From IMG/VR virus record IMGVR_UViG_3300003322_000423, positions 1 through 64,000 of that record: 64,000 nt of DNA, one strand, 5' to 3'. Below, one piece after another: positions 1 through 61,252 of this stretch. Under the pieces are notes generated by a model that was not told the DNA's origin, did no database searches, and saw nothing but the letters and a program-made list of their open reading frames with translations. Within the stretch, counting starts at the first letter, position 1, and the number at the start of each line of letters is the position of its first letter. Both the position numbers and the translations under genes were made by a program. The stretch comes from a virus.

Positions 1-10
1 CGATCTTGAA

Positions 11-31
11 AAGCCCCTCCTGAGAGGGGCT
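11..31 (-). terminator. Intrinsic terminator-like hairpin ending the leftward early operon
   Basis: AGCCCCTC-CT-GAGAGGGGCT inverted repeat, followed by a U-run on the minus strand. Confidence 0.65.
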
Positions 32-52
32 GATGATCTTGTGGTTGTCAGC

Positions 53-232
53 TCAGGTGCTGTCAGGGATGCGGGTTGCCGGGTACTCGATGCTGCCCAT
101 GTAGCCCTTGCAATCCCAGAACTGAATCTCCCCGTCACCGGAGATCTCGACAGCACGGCCGTCATGCAGCCACACTGTGAACGATTCGTCGTCCTTGGAC
201 AGGGTAACGTCTTCAATCTTCGCTGTTGCCAT
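53..232 (-). CDS. Small hypothetical protein (59 aa, MATAKIEDVT...), below the ORF-track cutoff
   Basis: Open frame read by hand; GGAGAG plus TGATCACCATG start motif shared with neighbours. Confidence 0.75.
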   Translation of the reverse strand: MATAKIEDVTLSKDDESFTVWLHDGRAVEISGDGEIQFWDCKGYMGSIEYPATRIPDST

Positions 233-1271: not shown

Positions 1272-1345
1272 CCCCCTGGGCGAATCTTTTCCAAGATTCT
1301 TTTCCCAGGGAGTGCGGCTGTCCAGGGGCGCTGTGCGCGTGCTGG

Positions 1346-1594
1346 CTACCGGGTGAACGCACCCTCTATGTAGTCCCCCGTGGAGGGCACATACACGTCC
1401 TTGTGGCCCAGCACGAGGTAGAAGCCGTTCGCTTCGTCCCAATCCCAGCACACGCTGTCTTTCTGGCCCTTCGTGCTGTCGCACCAGGACACGGACGGGT
1501 GGCGCTCAGGACGCGTCGTGTTCGCGTGGGAGGTGGCTGTGGAGAGTACCGCCAGGATCAGAGCTGCGATCGCGGTGGCTGTCTTCTTGATCAT
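1346..1594 (-). CDS. Small secreted protein
   Basis: Sec-type signal peptide MIKKTATAIAALILAVLSTATSHA; GGAGAGG RBS. Confidence 0.7.
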   Translation of the reverse strand: MIKKTATAIAALILAVLSTATSHANTTRPERHPSVSWCDSTKGQKDSVCWDWDEANGFYLVLGHKDVYVPSTGDYIEGAFTR

Positions 1595-54452: not shown

Positions 54453-54526
54453 TGGTGGCGCCGCCCCGAGTCGCACGGGGGTCAAAGGGTTATGAGCCCT
54501 TTATGGAACTCCTCCACTACAGCGCA
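54453..54526 (-). tRNA. tRNA-fMet (CAT), CCA encoded
   Basis: Three G-C pairs closing the anticodon stem, 1:72 mismatch, T-loop UGCGACU. Confidence 0.8.
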
Positions 54527-54527
54527 G

Positions 54528-54601
54528 TAGTTCTGACGGGATTCGAACCCGTGATCTTCTCCTTATGAGGGAGCTGCCCTAAACCACTAGGCCACAGAAC
54601 T
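54528..54601 (-). tRNA. tRNA-Met or Ile2 (CAT)
   Basis: Cloverleaf; loop CTCATAA. Confidence 0.8.
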
Positions 54602-54672
54602 ATAGAAAGGAACAATGTCAGGTACAGCCGTGTCTCCTGATGTGGCCTGGCCCAGCTACTCATTGTTCCTTG

Positions 54673-54747
54673 TTCCACCGACGGGATTTGAACCCGTGAC
54701 CAACACATTATCAGTGTGTCACTCTTACCAGACTGAGTTACGGTGGA
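54673..54747 (-). tRNA. tRNA-Ile (GAT)
   Basis: ACACA-CTGATAA-TGTGT. Confidence 0.9.
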
Positions 54748-54826
54748 GATGTGACGGTTTTCCTGAGGCCCTACTTAAAGGATGCTGCGCTCTTGCCCCT
54801 CAGAGGTCGAACCGTCAAACCTCGCG

Positions 54827-54899
54827 CGACCTAGACGGGGATCGAACCCGCGACTTCCACCTTGACAGGGTGGTGCTCTAACCACTGAACTACTAGGCC
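54827..54899 (-). tRNA. tRNA-Asp (GTC)
   Basis: CCACC-CTGTCAA-GGTGG. Confidence 0.92.
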
Positions 54900-55083
54900 A
54901 AAACCCTGCCCACAAGGAACAGGATGGGTTATAAATTATACACATATTTCGTAAGGTTCAAGAGACTTTCCCACCTGGTACAGAGGTGTTCTCCATTGCT
55001 ACTTACGATCCTTTATTACCCGTCTCTTTTCAGGGAGCGATTCCGTGTACCCGGCAGACGGAGCGTGATGTGTTTACGCCGCG

Positions 55084-55160
55084 TGGAGCTAGACCGAATT
55101 GCACGGTCCTCCGGAAGCCTCCGCATGCGGCCCTACTTCCGTCGAAACTAAATTAGCCCC
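55084..55160 (-). ncRNA. Mini-tmRNA-like RNA (tRNA-like domain only, no mRNA-like domain)
   Basis: GGGGCUA/UAGCUCC-A acceptor with G3.U, unpaired D-loop ending UUCGAC, GGAAGU/GCUUCC helix, GGAG linker, T-arm. Confidence 0.7.
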
Positions 55161-55207
55161 TTGCCCGGTTTTTGTGTATACCTGAACCGTGGTGACAAAA
55201 CAGGTAG

Positions 55208-55280
55208 TGGAGATGACAGGACTCGAACCCGCCGCCTTCTGCGTGCAAAGCAGACGCTCTTCCCGATGAGCTACATCCCC
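55208..55280 (-). tRNA. tRNA-Ala (TGC)
   Basis: G3.U70; loop TTTGCAC. Confidence 0.92.
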
Positions 55281-55336
55281 AAACCAGGTTTTTGATAACG
55301 CAGAACCCCGTCTCCCGAAAACTGCGTGTCTAAGTG

Positions 55337-56452
55337 TTATTCGTTGCAATTACAGTCTAATTGTAGCGGAGGTTCCCAGATTTGTCCATCCCCTGGAACC
55401 TGCGATTTAGGCTGATAGTCCAGCGGACTGAACAACAGATTTGCATTCGTCTCGTTACGTGTACCAAGCCATAGATCTACACCTTGATATGGTACACCGT
55501 CGACCACGCTGACTGTTCTGGGCTGTCCGCCACATGAGGCCCCGTTGAAGATGCGACGCCCGTATACCGGCGCACCCCAACCGACGTTCCCGGGAGCTGT
55601 CCAGCCGCTGTAGAGACTGGAACTAGTGGCATATCCGATCGGGGTACCTGCACAGTAGCCGCATCCCTGATCAGAATATGTTATCACATATTCCTGTGAT
55701 CTTTCATCCCAGAAACCGCCGGGACCTTCCGTATGACTCAGACTTGCCACATTCGTGACACCTAGAGCCGTCCCCCCGCTACCCCAGTAATTCAATTGCT
55801 GGATATTCATTCCAGTATTGCCGGGAAGAGTGCAGATGATAGCTGGTGGTCCGGAGCGAGCCTGGATTATACCGAAGTCCCCGTTGCCCGTACAGATACT
55901 CAGATTAGGTTTGTTGTATGAGCCCCAGGGCTTTCCTGCATTAGGCCCACAAGGTCCGGCAGGCCCGTTGCATCCCATAACGTTATACCCGCTCTGGGCG
56001 CCGTCAGACTTGTGCCTAGGGGCGTTGAACCAGAGTATGAACGCGCCGTCGTTGTGGCCCCAGCCTGTACGCTGGATCATCCGAGGATTGAAACATCCCT
56101 GGCCGGTACCACCACACGTGGTCTGCCACGAAACCTTCTTGTACGGGTCCTGTTCGTTAGGGTTGAACAACAGCTTAGGTTCAGACCATGGACCCTCTAT
56201 GCTCTGGGAGGTGCTCACACCGAAGCCACAGAAAGGTGTGTTTTTGATACTCCACTGGAAACCACATTTGTACATGGTTCCGTACAGGTAATAGGTGTTC
56301 CCGAACTTGGCTAAATGTCCATCGTGAAGATCTACACCCTGAATGTTCAGAGGTCTAGGATCAGACTGAGTCTCGGCGTTTACAGGTCCGGAAAATAAAA
56401 ATACAGTTGCCGTTACGACAACTGCGACAAGTAATCTATATAGCCGTTTCAC
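55337..56452 (-). CDS. Secreted glycoside hydrolase (GH43-like five-bladed beta-propeller)
   Basis: Signal peptide; LHDG.....G.TYYLYG; GPW; EGP; repeated blades. Confidence 0.7.
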   Translation of the reverse strand: MKRLYRLLVAVVVTATVFLFSGPVNAETQSDPRPLNIQGVDLHDGHLAKFGNTYYLYGTMYKCGFQWSIKNTPFCGFGVSTSQSIEGPWSEPKLLFNPNEQDPYKKVSWQTTCGGTGQGCFNPRMIQRTGWGHNDGAFILWFNAPRHKSDGAQSGYNVMGCNGPAGPCGPNAGKPWGSYNKPNLSICTGNGDFGIIQARSGPPAIICTLPGNTGMNIQQLNYWGSGGTALGVTNVASLSHTEGPGGFWDERSQEYVITYSDQGCGYCAGTPIGYATSSSLYSGWTAPGNVGWGAPVYGRRIFNGASCGGQPRTVSVVDGVPYQGVDLWLGTRNETNANLLFSPLDYQPKSQVPGDGQIWEPPLQLDCNCNE

Positions 56453-56473
56453 TGCCCTCTCCTAATAGATAAG

Positions 56474-56547
56474 TAGGCCCGTCGGGATTTGAACCCGCAT
56501 CACCTGTATATAAGACAGGCGCTCTTACCTGATTGAGCTACAGGCCC
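56474..56547 (-). tRNA. tRNA-Ile (TAT)
   Basis: CCTGT-CTTATAT-ACAGG. Confidence 0.85.
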
Positions 56548-56722
56548 ATTGACACTAACCAAGTCTAGGTGTCTGTCCGTGTCATCTGTCTCCGACTACC
56601 GGCTTGTCACTTGGAAATTCTCTCTGATCCGGATGACACTTCGTCCAGAGAACGGGCCTGTGTCGTGGCCCCAGTGCTTGCAGTATCTTACTGACAGATG
56701 GTGTTCAGACTTACAAGCAAAG

Positions 56723-56807
56723 CGGAAGCGGTGGGACTCGAACCCACAAGGATTGGTTACCCAGCCGCTTTCAAGGCGGTGTATCTCTCCCATGTGACAG
56801 CACTTCC
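56723..56807 (-). tRNA. tRNA-Ser (TGA)
   Basis: Loop CTTGAAA; long variable arm; G73. Confidence 0.85.
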
Positions 56808-56810
56808 AGG

Positions 56811-57203
56811 TTACTTCTTAAATCTTTGCCATGTTCGTTCTCTGTGGCAATTAGAACAAACCAAATCACACTTAGCTATTTCGGCTTTGATATCTTCAAC
56901 TGTAGCATGTCTATAGGTGATACCTATGTTGAATAACTTAATCTCATCAGGTCTGTGATCAAAATCCATAACATAGTGGGGGTACTGAACGCCACAATCC
57001 ATACAGGGCTTACCCGCCTTGTAGTCTTGGATGAATTGACGCTTTTCACCCCGCCTAACATGCTGTCTCGATATATTCTTATTCTTTTGATCTACGCCAC
57101 AGTAGTAGGACACAGTGGATTTAGAACATCCTAGTTCCTTAGCTATAGCGTTGTACGTGTAGCCAGCTTCTCTTAACCTAAAGATATCTGCCTCATATGT
57201 CAT
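56811..57203 (-). CDS. HTH + HNH endonuclease; leaderless
   Basis: YNAIAKELGCSKSTVSY; CMDCG...DFDH...EIAKCDLVCSNCHRERT. Confidence 0.88.
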   Translation of the reverse strand: MTYEADIFRLREAGYTYNAIAKELGCSKSTVSYYCGVDQKNKNISRQHVRRGEKRQFIQDYKAGKPCMDCGVQYPHYVMDFDHRPDEIKLFNIGITYRHATVEDIKAEIAKCDLVCSNCHRERTWQRFKK

Positions 57204-57226
57204 GAGGCAAGTATATCAAAGGTTCG

Positions 57227-57300
57227 AGGCCATTACCAGGATCGAACTGGTCCAATGTAGATTTGCAGTCTACCGCTTACTTCCAGCAAGCTCAATGGCC
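57227..57300 (-). tRNA. tRNA-Cys (GCA)
   Basis: GTAGA-CTGCAAA-TCTAC; U73. Confidence 0.88.
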
Positions 57301-57304
57301 ATTA

Positions 57305-57360
57305 GGTGCAGGTGCCGGGACTCGAACCCGGGAGTCATGACCTCCGACCGTCATCGCACC
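57305..57360 (-). ncRNA. D-armless tRNA-like element (56 nt)
   Basis: Perfect T-arm CCGGG-TTCGAGT-CCCGG, one further hairpin, GGTGC/GCACC closing stem. Confidence 0.6.
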
Positions 57361-57368
57361 ATTCCCAG

Positions 57369-57453
57369 CGGAAATGACAGGATTCGAACCTGCGGACCTG
57401 TTACAGTCTCTGCTTTAGCAAAACAGTGCTTTCACCCACTCAGCCACATTTCC
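57369..57453 (-). tRNA. tRNA-Ser (GCT)
   Basis: Loop TTGCTAA; long variable arm. Confidence 0.88.
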
Positions 57454-57456
57454 ATG

Positions 57457-57527
57457 TTCGTCCTACGGATTTCGATACCGCATCTTCGGGCACGTTCCCC
57501 GACGTTCTACCTTTGAACTAAGAACGA
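57457..57527 (-). tRNA. Atypical tRNA-like RNA (ACG centred in a non-canonical loop)
   Basis: Full cloverleaf, but loop GA-ACG-TG and an altered T-loop. Confidence 0.55.
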
Positions 57528-57530
57528 ATG

Positions 57531-57612
57531 TGCTAGAGGCCGGATTTGCACCGACACAGCCTGAGGCGACACTTTTACAGAGTGCGGGGCTCCACTAATG
57601 CCCAGCTCTAGC
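57531..57612 (-). tRNA. tRNA-Tyr (GTA)
   Basis: Loop CTGTAAA; variable arm; T-loop UGCAAAU. Confidence 0.85.
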
Positions 57613-57683
57613 GTGTGGGACCTTTTAACCGGAGTCCCAGACGGAGCATCTTCGGACCTCGTCCCGGTATGTGCTATACCCCG

Positions 57684-57756
57684 TACACCTAGAGAGACTC
57701 GAACTCCCATCCCTGGTTCCGTAGACCAGTGCTCTAATCCTTTGAGCTATAGGTGC
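57684..57756 (-). tRNA. tRNA-Arg (ACG)
   Basis: CTGGT-CTACGGA-ACCAG. Confidence 0.9.
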
Positions 57757-57874
57757 ATTGCCCTAAGCGCCTTGGTGGACGCCTTGCAAATCCGGGCCAG
57801 ACTCAGAGACTCTTGCTAGCTAGAATCTCACAGCGACGTGTCCGTATGAGGTAACAGCGGTCGACTGGCTTGCG

Positions 57875-57946
57875 TCCGGGTGGGGATAATCGAAATCCCT
57901 ATACGACTTCCCAAAAGTCGCGTGTTAACCATTACACTACACCCAG
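57875..57946 (-). tRNA. tRNA-Pro (TGG)
   Basis: CGACT-TTTGGGA-AGTCG. Confidence 0.85.
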
Positions 57947-57950
57947 TCAG

Positions 57951-58021
57951 AGCGATATAGGAGAATCGAACTCCTGTAGTCTGTTTGGAAGACAGAGGCT
58001 TTACCATTAAGCTAATATCGC
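57951..58021 (-). tRNA. tRNA-Gly (TCC)
   Basis: TCTGT-CTTCCAA-ACAGA; U73. Confidence 0.9.
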
Positions 58022-58071
58022 ATTGCTATTTTCGTCCACGTAGGCGCCCTGGAACCGGCATAGCTGCCTCG

Positions 58072-58143
58072 TACCCAGTAACAGATTCGAACTGTTGACA
58101 CGCGCGGTGTAAACGCGATGCTCTTCCCCTGAGCTAACCGGGT
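58072..58143 (-). tRNA. tRNA-Val (TAC)
   Basis: Loop TTTACAC. Confidence 0.88.
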
Positions 58144-58193
58144 TTATGGGCCCCCGGAAAGTTTATAGTCTGTCGGTTCCAGCCCTAGACTTG

Positions 58194-58266
58194 AGCCCCC
58201 AGTACGATTTGAACGCACGACCTGCCGCTTACAAGGCGGCTGCTCTAACCCCTGAGCTATGGAGGC
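58194..58266 (-). tRNA. tRNA-Thr (TGT)
   Basis: GCCGC-CTTGTAA-GCGGC. Confidence 0.9.
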
Positions 58267-58279
58267 ATGTATTTAGTTA

Positions 58280-58352
58280 TGTGACCACAGGGAATCGAAC
58301 CCTGATCTTGCGGACCACAACCGCGTGCACTAGCCATTGTGCTATGGTCACC
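58280..58352 (-). tRNA. tRNA-His (GTG)
   Basis: Loop TTGTGGT; G-1 present. Confidence 0.88.
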
Positions 58353-58353
58353 G

Positions 58354-58427
58354 CTCCCGATCTATGACTCGAACATAGAACCTCTGCGTCCAGAGCGCAG
58401 CGCAACTACCAATTGTGCTAATCGGGA
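58354..58427 (-). tRNA. tRNA-Gln (CTG)
   Basis: CTGCG-CTCTGGA-CGCAG; U1-A72; G73. Confidence 0.88.
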
Positions 58428-58546
58428 TTGATTCAGTTATAAGACCTTACTACCCGACGACCTCGTGCCGCCCTAACCTAACCATGAACGAGAGGGGTTG
58501 CAACCACTGTGACATCTCGTTCCCCTACTTTCCTCGTAAGGTCTCG

Positions 58547-58633
58547 CTCAGGTGGCTGGAATTGAACCAGCGAAGGATTTCTCCGAAACGGTTAACAGCC
58601 GCACCCAACATCGCCAACGGTTGGCCCACCTGA
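58547..58633 (-). tRNA. tRNA-Asn (GTT) with an atypical long variable arm
   Basis: GCGG-CTGTTAA-CCGT; extra GGA-GAAA-TCC hairpin; 5-bp D-stem. Confidence 0.8.
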
Positions 58634-58638
58634 TCGCT

Positions 58639-59064
58639 TTATGCAATTATATCTGAACCCGAGTACAACCCTGTTCGGTACAGACGCTTTGCGGTCTTAC
58701 ACCTATCACATCTACAGGTCATCTCGTGATACATTCTAGCAGTGCCGTGGTAGTATTCACCTCGAATACCTTTATTCCAAGGCGTGATGGCACCGTCTCT
58801 CCACTGCTGTTTAGTCTTTTCATCATGACAAGTTTTACACACTACTTCACACTTGTCAAGTTCTTCTAGAATACTTTTCCAGGATCTATCTAAACCCGCC
58901 CCGGATAAAGTAAACGACTTTGTAGTGGGGTCTTTGTGGTTAAGCTCTAAATCATCAGGACTGCCACAGTCTACGCATTCACTACCGGACAGGTCAAATA
59001 ATTTTTGTCGACGTGTTTTACGTCGATTGGCCATATAGGTCTTCATATATTCGTTAGTAGGCAT
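58639..59064 (-). CDS. HNH endonuclease with a C-terminal HGT...CRCxxC motif; leaderless
   Basis: CVDCGS...LELNH.DP..KSF...ELDKCEVVCKTCH..KT; HGTARMY...CRCDRC. Confidence 0.85.
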   Translation of the reverse strand: MPTNEYMKTYMANRRKTRRQKLFDLSGSECVDCGSPDDLELNHKDPTTKSFTLSGAGLDRSWKSILEELDKCEVVCKTCHDEKTKQQWRDGAITPWNKGIRGEYYHGTARMYHEMTCRCDRCKTAKRLYRTGLYSGSDIIA

Positions 59065-59070
59065 ACATTC

Positions 59071-59099
59071 ATTTTAACATGAAATGCTCTACCAGTAAA
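59071..59099 (-). promoter_or_regulatory. Internal promoter for the leaderless HNH mRNA
   Basis: TTTACT-17 bp-TAAAAT with TGn, 6 nt before the ATG. Confidence 0.7.
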
Positions 59100-59102
59100 G
59101 AG

Positions 59103-59173
59103 CAGGCCCAGAAAGAGTCGAACTTTCCCTTTGAGACTTGGAAACTCATGTGCTTCCGATACACTATGGACCC
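59103..59173 (-). tRNA. tRNA-Trp (CCA)
   Basis: Loop TTCCAAG; G73. Confidence 0.8.
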
Positions 59174-59217
59174 GTGAGAGACCATGATAACACATAGTCT
59201 CTGTTTTGTCTATTCTG

Positions 59218-59287
59218 CCGGGATACTGGGATTCGAACCCAGGTAGGGCTTCAGGGACCCGGTACTTGGCCGCTGTACGATACCCCT
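59218..59287 (-). tRNA. Atypical tRNA-like RNA (CTG-centred loop with C33)
   Basis: Perfect T-arm, GTAC/GTAC D-stem, loop CCCTGAA, 2-nt variable region. Confidence 0.55.
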
Positions 59288-59484
59288 ACCCACAAGGTCG
59301 ACTTCTTGCGGGCTCCCCTCAGCGTTTCGAACCGCATTGAGGGGCAACAGAAAACGTGTCAGCTTTCGCTGATCAAACCGGGCACCGAGGATATCTTAAA
59401 CCAGACTTCTAATCCCGCAGGACGTTGTCACTGGCTCGGTGCGCCCCCTTGTGCACAGGGCGCTAAGGCGACCCAGGGGGTTTG

Positions 59485-59557
59485 CGCTCTTGGAGGGATT
59501 CGAACCCCCGACCTTGACGATAGAAGCGTCTTGCTCTTTCCACTGAGCTACAAGAGC
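59485..59557 (-). tRNA. tRNA-Arg (TCT)
   Basis: GACG-CTTCTAT-CGTC. Confidence 0.9.
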
Positions 59558-59623
59558 TTGGAGCCTGCACGTTGCCCTCAATGGCAGGCTCTATTCAGTT
59601 GTATTGACCCATCCTAAGGTCAG

Positions 59624-59698
59624 TACCGGTGACGGGGCTCGAACCCGCGTTCTTCTGACTGAGAATCAGATGAGCTTTGCCAACAGCTCCACACCGGC
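59624..59698 (-). tRNA. tRNA-Glu (CTC)
   Basis: TCTGA-TTCTCAG-TCAGA. Confidence 0.85.
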
Positions 59699-59799
59699 AA
59701 GCCCACAGCTTTTATTTCGGTACCTTCGGGCTGGAGTTCCCAGGTCTTACTTAGGCTGTGGCGGTATTCCAGAGTTACTTCGAATAGCCTCTAGAACCG

Positions 59800-59876
59800 T
59801 ATCCGAGACCGGAATCGAACCGGCGTCTTCTCCTGATTGAAAGTCAGGGCACCCCTGCCAACAGAGTAACTCGGAC
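59800..59876 (-). tRNA. tRNA-Glu (TTC)
   Basis: CCTGA-CTTTCAA-TCAGG. Confidence 0.85.
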
Positions 59877-59967
59877 TTGGACCGGTTTTTGTTTCTAACC
59901 AGAGCACTCCGGGGGCTACCCGGCACTATACTGGCCCTAATTCAGAACCCGTCCCCGAAACTGAACG

Positions 59968-60043
59968 TACCTGTGAAAGGACTCGAACCTTCAAACCTTC
60001 TGATCCTAAGTCAGACGCCTCTACCAAATTGGGCTACACAGGC
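59968..60043 (-). tRNA. tRNA-Leu (TAG), short variable region
   Basis: TCTGA-CTTAGGA-TCAGA; no long variable arm. Confidence 0.85.
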
Positions 60044-60127
60044 TTAAAACCCTGGGCTGGAAGCATCCAGCAGTATGGAAACTTATAGTGGTTGACTTGT
60101 GAGGGAAAACGCACTACCCAGGGTCAG

Positions 60128-60201
60128 TACTCCGACTCGGACTTGAACCGAGGACACGCGGATTAAGAGTCCGCTGCTACTACCAACTGAGCTACCGGAG
60201 C
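60128..60201 (-). tRNA. tRNA-Lys (CTT)
   Basis: GCGGA-CTCTTAA-TCCGC. Confidence 0.9.
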
Positions 60202-60505
60202 GAGAAAAAACTATTCTAGCATACCCCGAAGGGTGGCGGGTGGGGTGATTTCCCACAACAGAGGGCAGGCCATTAGCCGATTTAATTACCTCTGAACCAC
60301 ACGTTAGCCGCTAAGCACGAATTCAGGCGCATCGCTAAATGCCCTTCCGTCAACTTCCTCACCGATTGGCTCTGGATAAAGGGGTGGCCCTTTGGGGTGC
60401 CCGCCCAAGCTTACGTTTGTCTTCCGCCGTGTGTACAATCCATCCCCCGATCTGCATAGGGGATCGTTTCTGTCACCGCCCACACTTCCCGTCGGAAGTG
60501 TGTTG

Positions 60506-60585
60506 TACCCACAGAGGGATTCGAACCCTCACGCCATAAGGCATCGCTTTTGAGGCGACTGACTATACCGTTCGTCTATGCGGGC
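60506..60585 (-). tRNA. tRNA-Leu (CAA)
   Basis: TCGC-CTCAAAA-GCGA; variable arm GCC-TTAT-GGC; A73. Confidence 0.87.
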
Positions 60586-60759
60586 CTCACCCTTGATTGC
60601 GCTACCACGCTCAAGGGCTTACCTCAGCTCTAGGTGAGGTCACAACAGCTCTCTAAACCCGGAGCCAGGGCGCCTCACGGTTTATGGTAGCTCCGTGAGA
60701 ACTTCAAGCTTGTGTCACCCCTCTGCCGGGGGGAAAGGAAACTCGGCAGAGAGGGACGG

Positions 60760-61161
60760 CTAAAGGTCTTCCACCATTATATGGAAACCGTATGCATAGT
60801 AGAAAGGGTTCCCCGCTGACCAGCCAACATCAAGCTTGAGCACATCACCCATGTCGGCGTAAATGTGCCAAGTCTGGTATCCGTCAGTCGTACCCACGCC
60901 CGTGATAATGTGGTCAACCATTTCGGGGTGGAGCAGAAAACCTTCAAGTTCTGTATAGGCGCAACAGTCGCTCTCACCGACAAGGGTCACTGCTTTACCG
61001 TTGTCCAGTATGATCCGGCCTTCGGGTGACACGCTGACGATTTTGTGGCCTACGACAGCTTCAGCAAGAGCATTCTTGCTGTCAACCATTGTACCGTTGT
61101 CTGTTTCTTCGTCAAGGATTTCCTCTTTGTACAGACGTTTGTGCTTGTACTTTTTGGCCAT
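60760..61161 (-). CDS. Hypothetical protein within the tRNA array
   Basis: AAAGGAG RBS; DCCA and GNPFYYAYGF motifs. Confidence 0.75.
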   Translation of the reverse strand: MAKKYKHKRLYKEEILDEETDNGTMVDSKNALAEAVVGHKIVSVSPEGRIILDNGKAVTLVGESDCCAYTELEGFLLHPEMVDHIITGVGTTDGYQTWHIYADMGDVLKLDVGWSAGNPFYYAYGFHIMVEDL

Positions 61162-61180
61162 GATAACTCCTTTCAAAAAG

Positions 61181-61252
61181 TAGCTCCCCGGAGACTCGAA
61201 CTCCGCACTCAGGCACTTCACGCCCGTGCTTTTCCTGATAAGCTAAAGAGCC
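61181..61252 (-). tRNA. tRNA-Phe (GAA), atypical anticodon loop
   Basis: CGGGC-GTGAAGT-GCCTG. Confidence 0.75.

Follow-up and report, generated by a model that had tools for sequence, protein, structure and literature searches.

The stretch of DNA analysed here (the window) comprises 64,000 nt, positions 1 to 64,000 of the IMG/VR virus record IMGVR_UViG_3300003322_000423, and contains on its minus strand, at 55084–55160, a 77-nt gene which is very probably a homologue of transfer-messenger RNA (tmRNA) consisting of the tRNA-like domain (TLD) only. Judged by its sequence, this mini-tmRNA is a new member, diverging somewhat from the rest, of the phage TLD-only tmRNA family to which the RNA of mycobacteriophage DS6A belongs. 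The initial annotation of the window had read it as the TLD of an alanine-identity tmRNA from which the mRNA-like domain and the pseudoknots are gone, and this structural reading is borne out by a covariance model of the family, by covariation in the helices and by the likeness of its ends to those of genuine tmRNAs. By analogy with tmRNA, we propose, with a probability of about 0.5, that the mini-tmRNA acts as a charged competitor which suppresses tagging by host trans-translation during infection.

Structure of the gene and its likeness to tmRNA

From 55160 to 55084 the minus strand reads GGGGCUA-AUUUAGUUUCGAC-GGAAGU-AGGG-CCGCAUGCGG-AG-GCUUCC-GGAG-GACCG-UGCAAUU-CGGUC-UAGCUCC-A, letter for letter as first annotated; all parts of the gene described below lie on this strand. 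The 5′ strand of the acceptor stem, GGGGCUA (55154–55160), forms 7 bp with the 3′ strand UAGCUCC (55085–55091), the latter being supported by the sequence, the fold and conservation in the family. The pairs are G1-C72, G2-C71, G3.U70, G4-C69, C5-G68, U6-A67 and A7-U66, with G3 at 55158 and U70 at 55087. The discriminator A73 (55084) is followed by CGC, so that CCA is not encoded by the gene. The D-loop, AUUUAGUUUCGA (55142–55153), has no D-stem, ends in UUUCGAC and leads straight into helix 2a; aligned with the tmRNA consensus ...UGGuUUCGAC, it shows an ‘AG’ variant instead of the usual GG. Helix 2a is composed of CGGAAGU (55135–55141) and GCUUCCG (55112–55118), which pair in the minimum free energy (MFE) fold, the 3′ strand being supported by family covariation as well. 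Within it, the same fold places an internal loop, AGGG and AG (55131–55134 and 55119–55120), around the apical hairpin CCGCAUGCGG (55121–55130), which has 3 bp and a CAUG loop (CCG-CAUG-CGG). The remainder of the GGAG linker from helix 2a to the T-arm is found at 55109–55111 (family consensus GGAC), and the T-arm GACCG-UGCAAUU-CGGUC (55092–55108), recognised from the sequence and the fold, has 5 bp and a 7-nt loop in which G replaces U55. The MFE fold of the gene thus gives the same architecture (−31.9 kcal/mol, z = −2.6 against shuffled sequences), with a 7-bp helix 2a running from C20-G49 to U26.G43 and an unpaired D region.

Full-length tmRNA (ssrA; RF00023, clan CL00001) contains the homologous TLD, with an alanine-identity acceptor, a D-loop ending in ...GGUUUCGAC, helix 2a, a GGAC linker and a T-arm, and is also encoded by phages (the mycobacteriophage Bxz1 group, Bacillus phage G and Melnitz). 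Unlike it, the window element has only 22 nt between the strands of helix 2a, where tmRNA has ~270 nt given over to tag template and pseudoknots; the resume codon, stop codon and tag open reading frame (ORF) are absent together with all four pseudoknots, and the element falls under the Rfam thresholds; with neither pseudoknots nor a tag ORF, a tag cannot be templated. In tmRNA the region contacted by SmpB is made up of the D-loop UUCGAC, helix 2a and the GGAC linker. The linker stands opposite the D-loop's 5′ GAC, in the arrangement known from tmRNA, where tandem G.A pairs form the base of helix 2a.

Concerning the standard tools, neither ARAGORN nor Rfam at gathering thresholds makes a call on 55084–55160, which is expected because the middle part of tmRNA is absent. 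When the Rfam thresholds are made permissive, the only families which touch the element are those of tmRNA, with 7–20 bits against cut-offs of 47–84. Its 5′ 22 nt (GGGGCUAAUUUAGUUUCGACGG) align to the tmRNA_permuted consensus GGGGgUGaAaUGGuUUCGACgg, and its 3′ 42 nt (GGAGGC-UUCCGGAGGACCGUGCAAUUCGGUCUAGCUCCAC) to the 3′ end of beta_tmRNA. The Rfam tRNA model RF00005 has no match to the element at E ≤ 10, and the element has no D-stem and no 7-nt anticodon loop; the mitochondrial tmRNA model RF02544 likewise has no match at E ≤ 10.

Two covariance models of the family were used: R1, whose training included the window sequence, and R2, which is based on 89 realigned non-redundant members with the window excluded. 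A search with covariance models across phages had been suggested in the initial annotation, and R2, built without the window, recovers the element over the full model length at 61.0 bits (E 7.7e-13), the next best match in the window being tRNA-Ala at 24.4 bits. On R1 the element scores 65.5 bits, and the members range from 47 to 96 bits, compared with up to 35 for tRNA-Ala genes and up to 23 for chance pattern matches; across the family models, tRNA-Ala genes reach 22–35 bits. The family consensus is GGGGCUGGAAUGGUUUCGAC ... GGAC-nnGGG-UUCGAUU-CCCnn-CAGCUCCA. Its ends match those of the permuted tmRNA which ARAGORN calls in Synechococcus WH 8017, where the coding piece starts with GGGGCUGCAAUGGUUUCGAC and the acceptor piece ends with GGACAGCGGUUCGAUUCCGCUCAGCUCCA.

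Conservation and distribution of the family

We used two sequence patterns to search IMG/VR for further members. The first, derived from the element itself (GGGGCT-N6-10-TTCGAC-N35-65-AGCTCCA), is found in 114 stretches; 53 distinct sequences passed a filter for the acceptor stem and the T-arm, and 51 of these, 70–81 nt long, were retained as clear homologues. The remaining matches of this pattern lack the T-arm and are due to chance. The second pattern leaves the acceptor stem free (GGTTTCGAC-N26-38-GGAC-N4-GTTCGANTC) and is found in at least 120 stretches. A structural detector applied to all fetched loci gives at least 133 distinct candidates of 70–83 nt (nearly all 75–81, mode 79), one of which proved on later inspection to be a false positive. 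The shortest members are L073 (70 nt) and L054 (62 nt). The initial annotation had allowed for two artefacts, an isolate-specific deletion of a full tmRNA and a misassembly. The first is excluded by the at least 133 distinct homologues of nearly equal length. As to the second, an independently assembled, read-derived Logan contig (root metagenome, the probable source sample) covers 55051–55342 with no difference, indel or joint and spans the element unchanged; the IMG assembly thus did not create the short form.

Covariation was analysed in the 89 non-redundant sequences, and the set of 51 sequences gives the same picture. Standard pairs occupy 95.3% of the alignment cells, compared with 67% after shuffling and 38–53% when the partners are slid; none of 500 shuffles reached the observed covariation score or percentage paired. 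Compensatory double changes are seen in 18 of the 22 pairs: five in the T-stem, six of the seven in helix 2a, three in the hairpin, and acceptor pairs 4–7. The T-arm is paired in 100% of the cells across the family. In the acceptor stem, pairs 4–7 vary freely and G1-C72, G2-C71, G3.U70 and A73 are essentially invariant. Among the matches listed in the acceptor-free search, G3.U70 is present in 98 and A73 in all of the 99 distinct sequences, which have 27 different acceptor stems; the single exception to G3.U70 looks like an offset error of the detector. That both are kept across so many acceptor stems speaks for alanine charging being under selection.

The most conserved internal features are the D-loop UUCGAC, helix 2a and the GGAC linker. 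The linker is GGAC in 80 of the 89 members and GGAG in the window and L095. The small hairpin with ‘GCAUG’, already pointed out when the gene was first annotated, corresponds to a 3-bp covarying hairpin whose exact apical motif, CCGCAYGCGG, is present in 29 of the 89 non-redundant members and absent in L073 and L054. Since the hairpin covaries and is missing from the shortest members, it looks like a structural cap and not like a coding remnant. The A-rich 5′ internal loop contains UAA or UAG often but not always, and for this reason we do not read it as a stop codon.

A tertiary covariation links the D-loop to the T-loop. All 45 members with GG in the D-loop (...GG-UUUCGA) have a T-loop UUCRANU, and all six members with AG (...AG-UUUCGA), the window included, have G at position 2 of the T-loop (xGC); the T-loops of these six are of the types UGCRAWU, AGCGUUA and GGCAGUA. 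In these six the tRNA elbow contact G18-psi55 is swapped for A18-G55 and G19-C56 is kept. The window copy (UUAG with UGCAAUU) belongs to the A18/G55 minority and retains G19 and C56; this accounts for its unusual T-loop and shows the L-shaped fold to be preserved. Both types are found together in one locus, L151 (IMGVR_UViG_3300017527_000281), which has two copies 1.2 kb apart, at 5–81 (+) and 1317–1392 (+), scoring 52 and 57 bits on R1; one is an A18/G55 variant (D-loop AUAG, T-loop GGCAGUA) and the other is canonical (GG with UUCGAUU).

Based on the 133 distinct elements, 24% of the family lie within 300 nt of a tRNA gene and 70% have no tRNA in the fetched locus. The adjacency to tRNA-Ala to which the initial annotation had drawn attention is thus real in the window, at a distance of 46 nt, but is not a feature of the family; in Streptomyces phages the neighbours are tRNA-Val and tRNA-Ser. 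The genes around the members are ordinary phage genes (capsid, prohead protease, portal, endolysin, primase/helicase, endonuclease VII), and no ORF family occurs in more than 14 of the loci. No recurrent neighbour protein means no dedicated partner, and the RNA must then work with host factors. In two loci of one phage lineage (L112:3602-5368 and L149:1053-2374) the mini-tmRNA is located on the same strand between the genes for the prohead serine protease (Peptidase_S78) and the major capsid protein, that is, inside the late structural operon and not among tRNAs.

The acceptor-free pattern was also searched in the genomes of 185,579 bacterial and archaeal species, with 25 matches. Six of these are true members, in Streptomyces, Cellulosimicrobium, and metagenome-assembled genomes (MAGs) of Mycobacterium, Acidimicrobiales, Sinomicrobium and Bacillota; by phylum they belong to Actinomycetota, apart from the one Bacteroidota MAG and the one Bacillota MAG. 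Two of the six adjoin tRNA arrays and look prophage-like. As only six true members are found in 185,579 species, the element is essentially a phage trait. Another 11 matches are cyanobacterial (L234:5397-5474 (−), L215, L219, L222-L225, L228, L232, L233 and L238) and represent the hosts’ own permuted two-piece tmRNA genes, nine with 30–38 bits on R1 and two by sequence likeness. The acceptor piece of Synechococcus/Cyanobium begins with a second GGUUUCGAC motif, 30–40 nt upstream of GGAC and the T-arm, which is why the DNA pattern of the mini-tmRNA matched; there is no paired 5′ strand of an acceptor stem. The haloarchaeal and other remaining matches have neither T-stem nor acceptor stem and are chance matches in GC-rich coding sequence.

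Within phages the element is sporadic among relatives. It is absent from the cultured phages nearest to the window by terminase and capsid (Yara, Wentworth, Zuko and KimJongPhill), and the structural genes of the window are closer to these Yara/Zuko-type Streptomyces phages than to those of the carriers. Cultured carriers are the Streptomyces phages BRock (Borockvirus), LuckySocke, GiJojo and pSt2308, actinophages of 112–115 kb whose copies score 73–84 bits on R1. These copies lie within tRNA arrays, between tRNA-Val and tRNA-Ser, and have acceptor stems GGGUCUG and GGGUUUG in which G3.U70 is kept. BRock (L117), pSt2308 (L118) and LuckySocke (L119) also possess a Ro-like RNA-binding protein just upstream of the array and an RNA-repair gene set of RNA ligases and a phosphoesterase; the window record has neither the Ro-like protein nor the RNA ligases. 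A bacterial Y RNA (YrlA) module acting with Ro60 was considered for the window and rejected: the record has no TROVE domain, and where a Y RNA would have a Ro-binding helix the element's two ends pair as a tRNA acceptor stem.

We found no description of the breadth of the family in the literature. One characterised phage case, of which the initial annotation was unaware, is on record: Hudson, Lau & Williams (2014) list ‘Mycobacterium phage DS6A (TLD only)’ (PMC4131195). The DS6A element (JN698994, 28478–28557; tmRNA Website tmID 11587 / Phage__Mycobacterium.9; Mao et al. 2009, RNA Biol 6:355) scores 66.7 bits on R1 and therefore belongs to the same family as the window element. The two have in common the G3.U70/A73 acceptor, the stemless D-loop, helix 2a, the CCGCAYGCGG hairpin and the T-arm; both are phage-borne and actinobacterial, and neither encodes CCA. 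They are also alike in length (80 nt in DS6A, 77 nt in the window) and differ in context: DS6A is a temperate phage of 60 kb with a solitary copy between gp33 and the DNA pol III gene, whereas the window copy is part of a 25-tRNA array in a phage of ~100 kb. Further differences of the window copy are its GGAG linker and its elbow, which is of the less common A18/G55 type (D-loop UAG, T-loop UGCAAUU); functional data exist for DS6A only. An RtcB-like ligase is present in DS6A; the window record has no RtcB.

Outside phages, tmRNAs without a coding sequence (CDS) are known from jakobid and oomycete mitochondria and, newly, from two plastids (~65-bp Mallomonadaceae forms) (PMC11915505). These organellar RNAs (RF02544; Jacob et al. 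2004) show the same reduction to a TLD with no tag reading frame; however, they belong to independent lineages and have a dedicated nuclear SmpB, whereas the phage RNA acts in a cell which already has a full tmRNA. The mitochondrial CDS-less tmRNA is an analogue of the window element and not a fellow member of its family. Laboratory constructs of the same design also exist. Engineered TLD fragments were reportedly used by Gutmann et al. in 2003, Bessho et al. in 2007 and Neubauer et al. in 2012 for SmpB-TLD crystal structures and ribosome complexes; they are said to combine the acceptor, D-loop and T-arm with a helix 2a closed by a short loop, and to bind SmpB and EF-Tu and to enter the ribosomal A site. 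Compared with these, the window element is a natural gene.

Proposed role and alternative explanations

Every step of the proposed role as a charged competitor is inferred from the biology of tmRNA. The mini-tmRNA would be transcribed together with the phage tRNA array, trimmed at its 5′ and 3′ ends by host RNase P and 3′ nucleases, and provided with CCA by the host enzyme. The host alanyl-tRNA synthetase (AlaRS) would charge it with alanine via G3.U70 and A73, host SmpB would bind at the elbow of D-loop and helix 2a, and EF-Tu would deliver it to ribosomes with an empty A site. The complex Ala-TLD-SmpB-EF-Tu would be a rival of host tmRNA, both for SmpB and at stalled ribosomes whose A site is empty; the nascent chain would pass to the alanine, gaining at most this residue and no proteolysis tag, and the ribosome would afterwards be either freed (tag-less rescue) or trapped. 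We rank this role first because the alanine identity set does not vary whereas the positions around it covary; a pure SmpB sponge would not require this.

The functions discussed for the DS6A RNA are those of an SmpB sponge or competitor and tag-less rescue (PMC4131195, PMC11915505). According to the same two papers, which refer to Mao et al. 2009, the DS6A TLD-only tmRNA inhibits the cell's own tmRNA upon expression in E. coli. Several points weigh against the role of a charged competitor. The inhibition by the DS6A RNA is known to us second-hand and was seen in a heterologous host; titration of SmpB alone could suffice, and the published data do not require entry into the ribosome. The public sequencing runs which contain the region come from one root-metagenome study only and are represented by DNA contigs; no RNA sequencing run with the region is listed. 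The window copy is divergent (UGCAAUU, UAG, GGAG), which makes it less certain that SmpB and EF-Tu recognise it than in the case of consensus members. Also, the benefit of blocking ribosome rescue to a phage with a full tRNA set is not obvious.

A possible, if more tentative, alternative is that the RNA serves as a rescue factor which adds no tag: the charged mini-tmRNA and host SmpB would free stalled ribosomes, with the nascent chain accepted on alanine, host ArfB, drop-off followed by Pth, or recycling would resolve the resulting peptidyl-TLD, and phage proteins would evade ssrA-directed proteolysis. The early steps are as for the charged competitor and the outcome alone differs. The strict retention of G3.U70 and A73 over 27 acceptor stems, for which a pure protein sponge would have no need, speaks for such rescue, as does the location of many members among translation genes, in tRNA arrays; the mitochondria of jakobids and oomycetes retain CDS-less tmRNAs together with a dedicated SmpB, and these are presumed to be of use there (PMC11915505). 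It is weakened by the search of the phage record, in which no release factor, ArfB or Pth was found, and by the sole phenotype reported for the DS6A RNA in the accounts of Mao et al. 2009 cited above, namely inhibition of tmRNA.

It is unlikely that the RNA is purely a sponge which sequesters host SmpB off the ribosome, charging and ribosome entry being irrelevant. Such a role would be served by the three most conserved internal features named above, which are those of the SmpB contact region; however, G1-C72, G2-C71, G3.U70 and A73 are near-invariant while the rest of the acceptor stem covaries, and this points to recognition by AlaRS.

Since alanine would arrive without a template, transpeptidation and translocation would leave the A site empty once more, and successive Ala-TLD-SmpB complexes could add several alanines. 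Template-free tailing of C termini with alanine on the 70S ribosome (RqcH-like), or a one-alanine tag-less rescue which spares truncated phage products from ClpXP, is a quite unlikely function of the element, and the strict conservation of the alanine identity fits a role at the level of the ribosome.

Processing punctuation is very improbable. Such a unit (a t-element) would merely direct the cuts of RNase P and RNase Z and would be neither charged nor bound by SmpB, which suits a gene set among tRNAs, 46 nt from one neighbour and 184 nt from the other; yet G3.U70/A73, the tmRNA-specific D-loop and the GGAC linker, none of which punctuation needs, are all conserved, 70% of the members have no tRNA in the locus, and some are located between prohead protease and capsid genes. 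A decayed tRNA-Ala, now a pseudogene missing the anticodon arm, or else a relic of attP type left by a host tmRNA gene, as might be suggested by the alanine-type acceptor, the adjoining tRNA-Ala and the integration of many phages into ssrA, is hardly credible, given that no Rfam tRNA match exists at E ≤ 10, that tRNA-Ala genes score 22–35 bits and members 47–96, that the acceptor stem is unlike that of the neighbouring tRNA-Ala, that both TLD halves are present and covary whereas an attP core is the 3′ half only, that DS6A integrates at tRNA-Lys and not at ssrA (PMC10865867), its element being therefore no attachment-site relic, and that conservation and covariation across at least 133 distinct sequences contradict both ideas.

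In bacteria, ribosome rescue and protein tagging are mainly the work of trans-translation, which in mycobacteria is also a drug target. If the mini-tmRNA is indeed a charged competitor, phages would have, in a small RNA that works through the AlaRS, SmpB and EF-Tu of the host, a natural means of inhibiting or re-routing this system. BRock, LuckySocke, GiJojo, pSt2308 and DS6A are tractable systems for following the fate of the ribosome after alanine transfer with no template, a question common to the CDS-less tmRNAs of mitochondria and plastids. ARAGORN, Rfam and tools of the tRNAscan type do not detect the family, which for this reason is unannotated even in cultured phages: the copies of BRock, LuckySocke, GiJojo and pSt2308 have no RNA annotation in GenBank, and that of GiJojo lies under a hypothetical-protein CDS. 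This kind of RNA is known but barely characterised, and a single instance is unsurprising to a tmRNA specialist. The value of the window is mainly correct annotation; in addition, its A18/G55 elbow variant shows the tRNA-like fold to be under selection.

The virus record and the surroundings of the gene

The source of the window is a virus record of 98,589 bp, estimated to be 85% complete, with a GC content of 50%. Its terminase has up to 51% and its major capsid protein 41–48% amino acid identity to those of the Streptomyces siphophages Yara, Wentworth, Zuko and KimJongPhill and of a Microbacterium phage, and it contains an ORF of tape-measure size (2,123 aa). The record is that of an actinophage-like siphovirus of soil. 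When the 2.5–3 kb region was compared with cultured phages by megablast and blastn, the tRNA genes were the only matches.

The mini-tmRNA is present in one copy in the whole record and sits within an array of 25 tRNA genes (54453–61252), all on the minus strand according to ARAGORN, which calls no full-length tmRNA anywhere in the record. Its upstream neighbour is tRNA-Ala(UGC) (55207–55280, minus strand; ARAGORN and Rfam, 62.6 bits); the spacer is 46 nt on this side and 184 nt on the side of tRNA-Asp. No gene for SmpB, Pth, RF-1/ArfB, a CCA-adding enzyme, RtcB or a Ro/TROVE protein was found in the record, which is ~85% complete, so that their absence is unproven. With no SmpB encoded by the phage record, the RNA must use host factors.

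Concerning transcription signals, a candidate sigma-70-like promoter (TGGACA-17-TACAAT) is located ~80 nt upstream of tRNA-Ala, at 55360–55388 on the minus strand; it is weak, with 10 of 12 matches in a consensus scan. In the scan of the region, promoter and terminator sites are no more numerous than in shuffled sequence. The 184-nt spacer between the mini-tmRNA and tRNA-Asp contains TTGAAC-N15-TGTGTATAAT (54930–54965, minus strand), which resembles an extended −10 promoter and was missed by the consensus scan because of its 15-nt spacing. If this promoter is real, the mini-tmRNA ends one transcription unit and tRNA-Asp starts the next.

Just upstream of tRNA-Ala there is an ORF of 371 aa (55337–56452, minus strand) with a sub-threshold match to Glyco_hydro_43 (19.7 bits). 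It has two distant viral relatives (47–56% amino acid identity), in loci which contain neither tRNAs nor a mini-tmRNA.

The array includes tRNA-Ile(UAU) and two adjoining tRNA-Met(CAU) genes. Five ARAGORN calls are under the Rfam tRNA gathering score (Met 54453, Ser 56722, Cys(GCA) 57226, Gln 58353 and ‘Asn’ 58546); the ‘Asn’ call is 88 nt long, with the anticodon at position 38, and could reflect an odd tRNA or a wrong prediction. Two tRNA-Cys genes are called by ARAGORN, at 58071–58143 and 57226–57300 on the minus strand, with the anticodons ACA (A34, unusual) and GCA. The tRNA-Cys(ACA) call scores 56.8 bits on the Rfam tRNA model and could be another isoacceptor, or its A34 could be modified to inosine.

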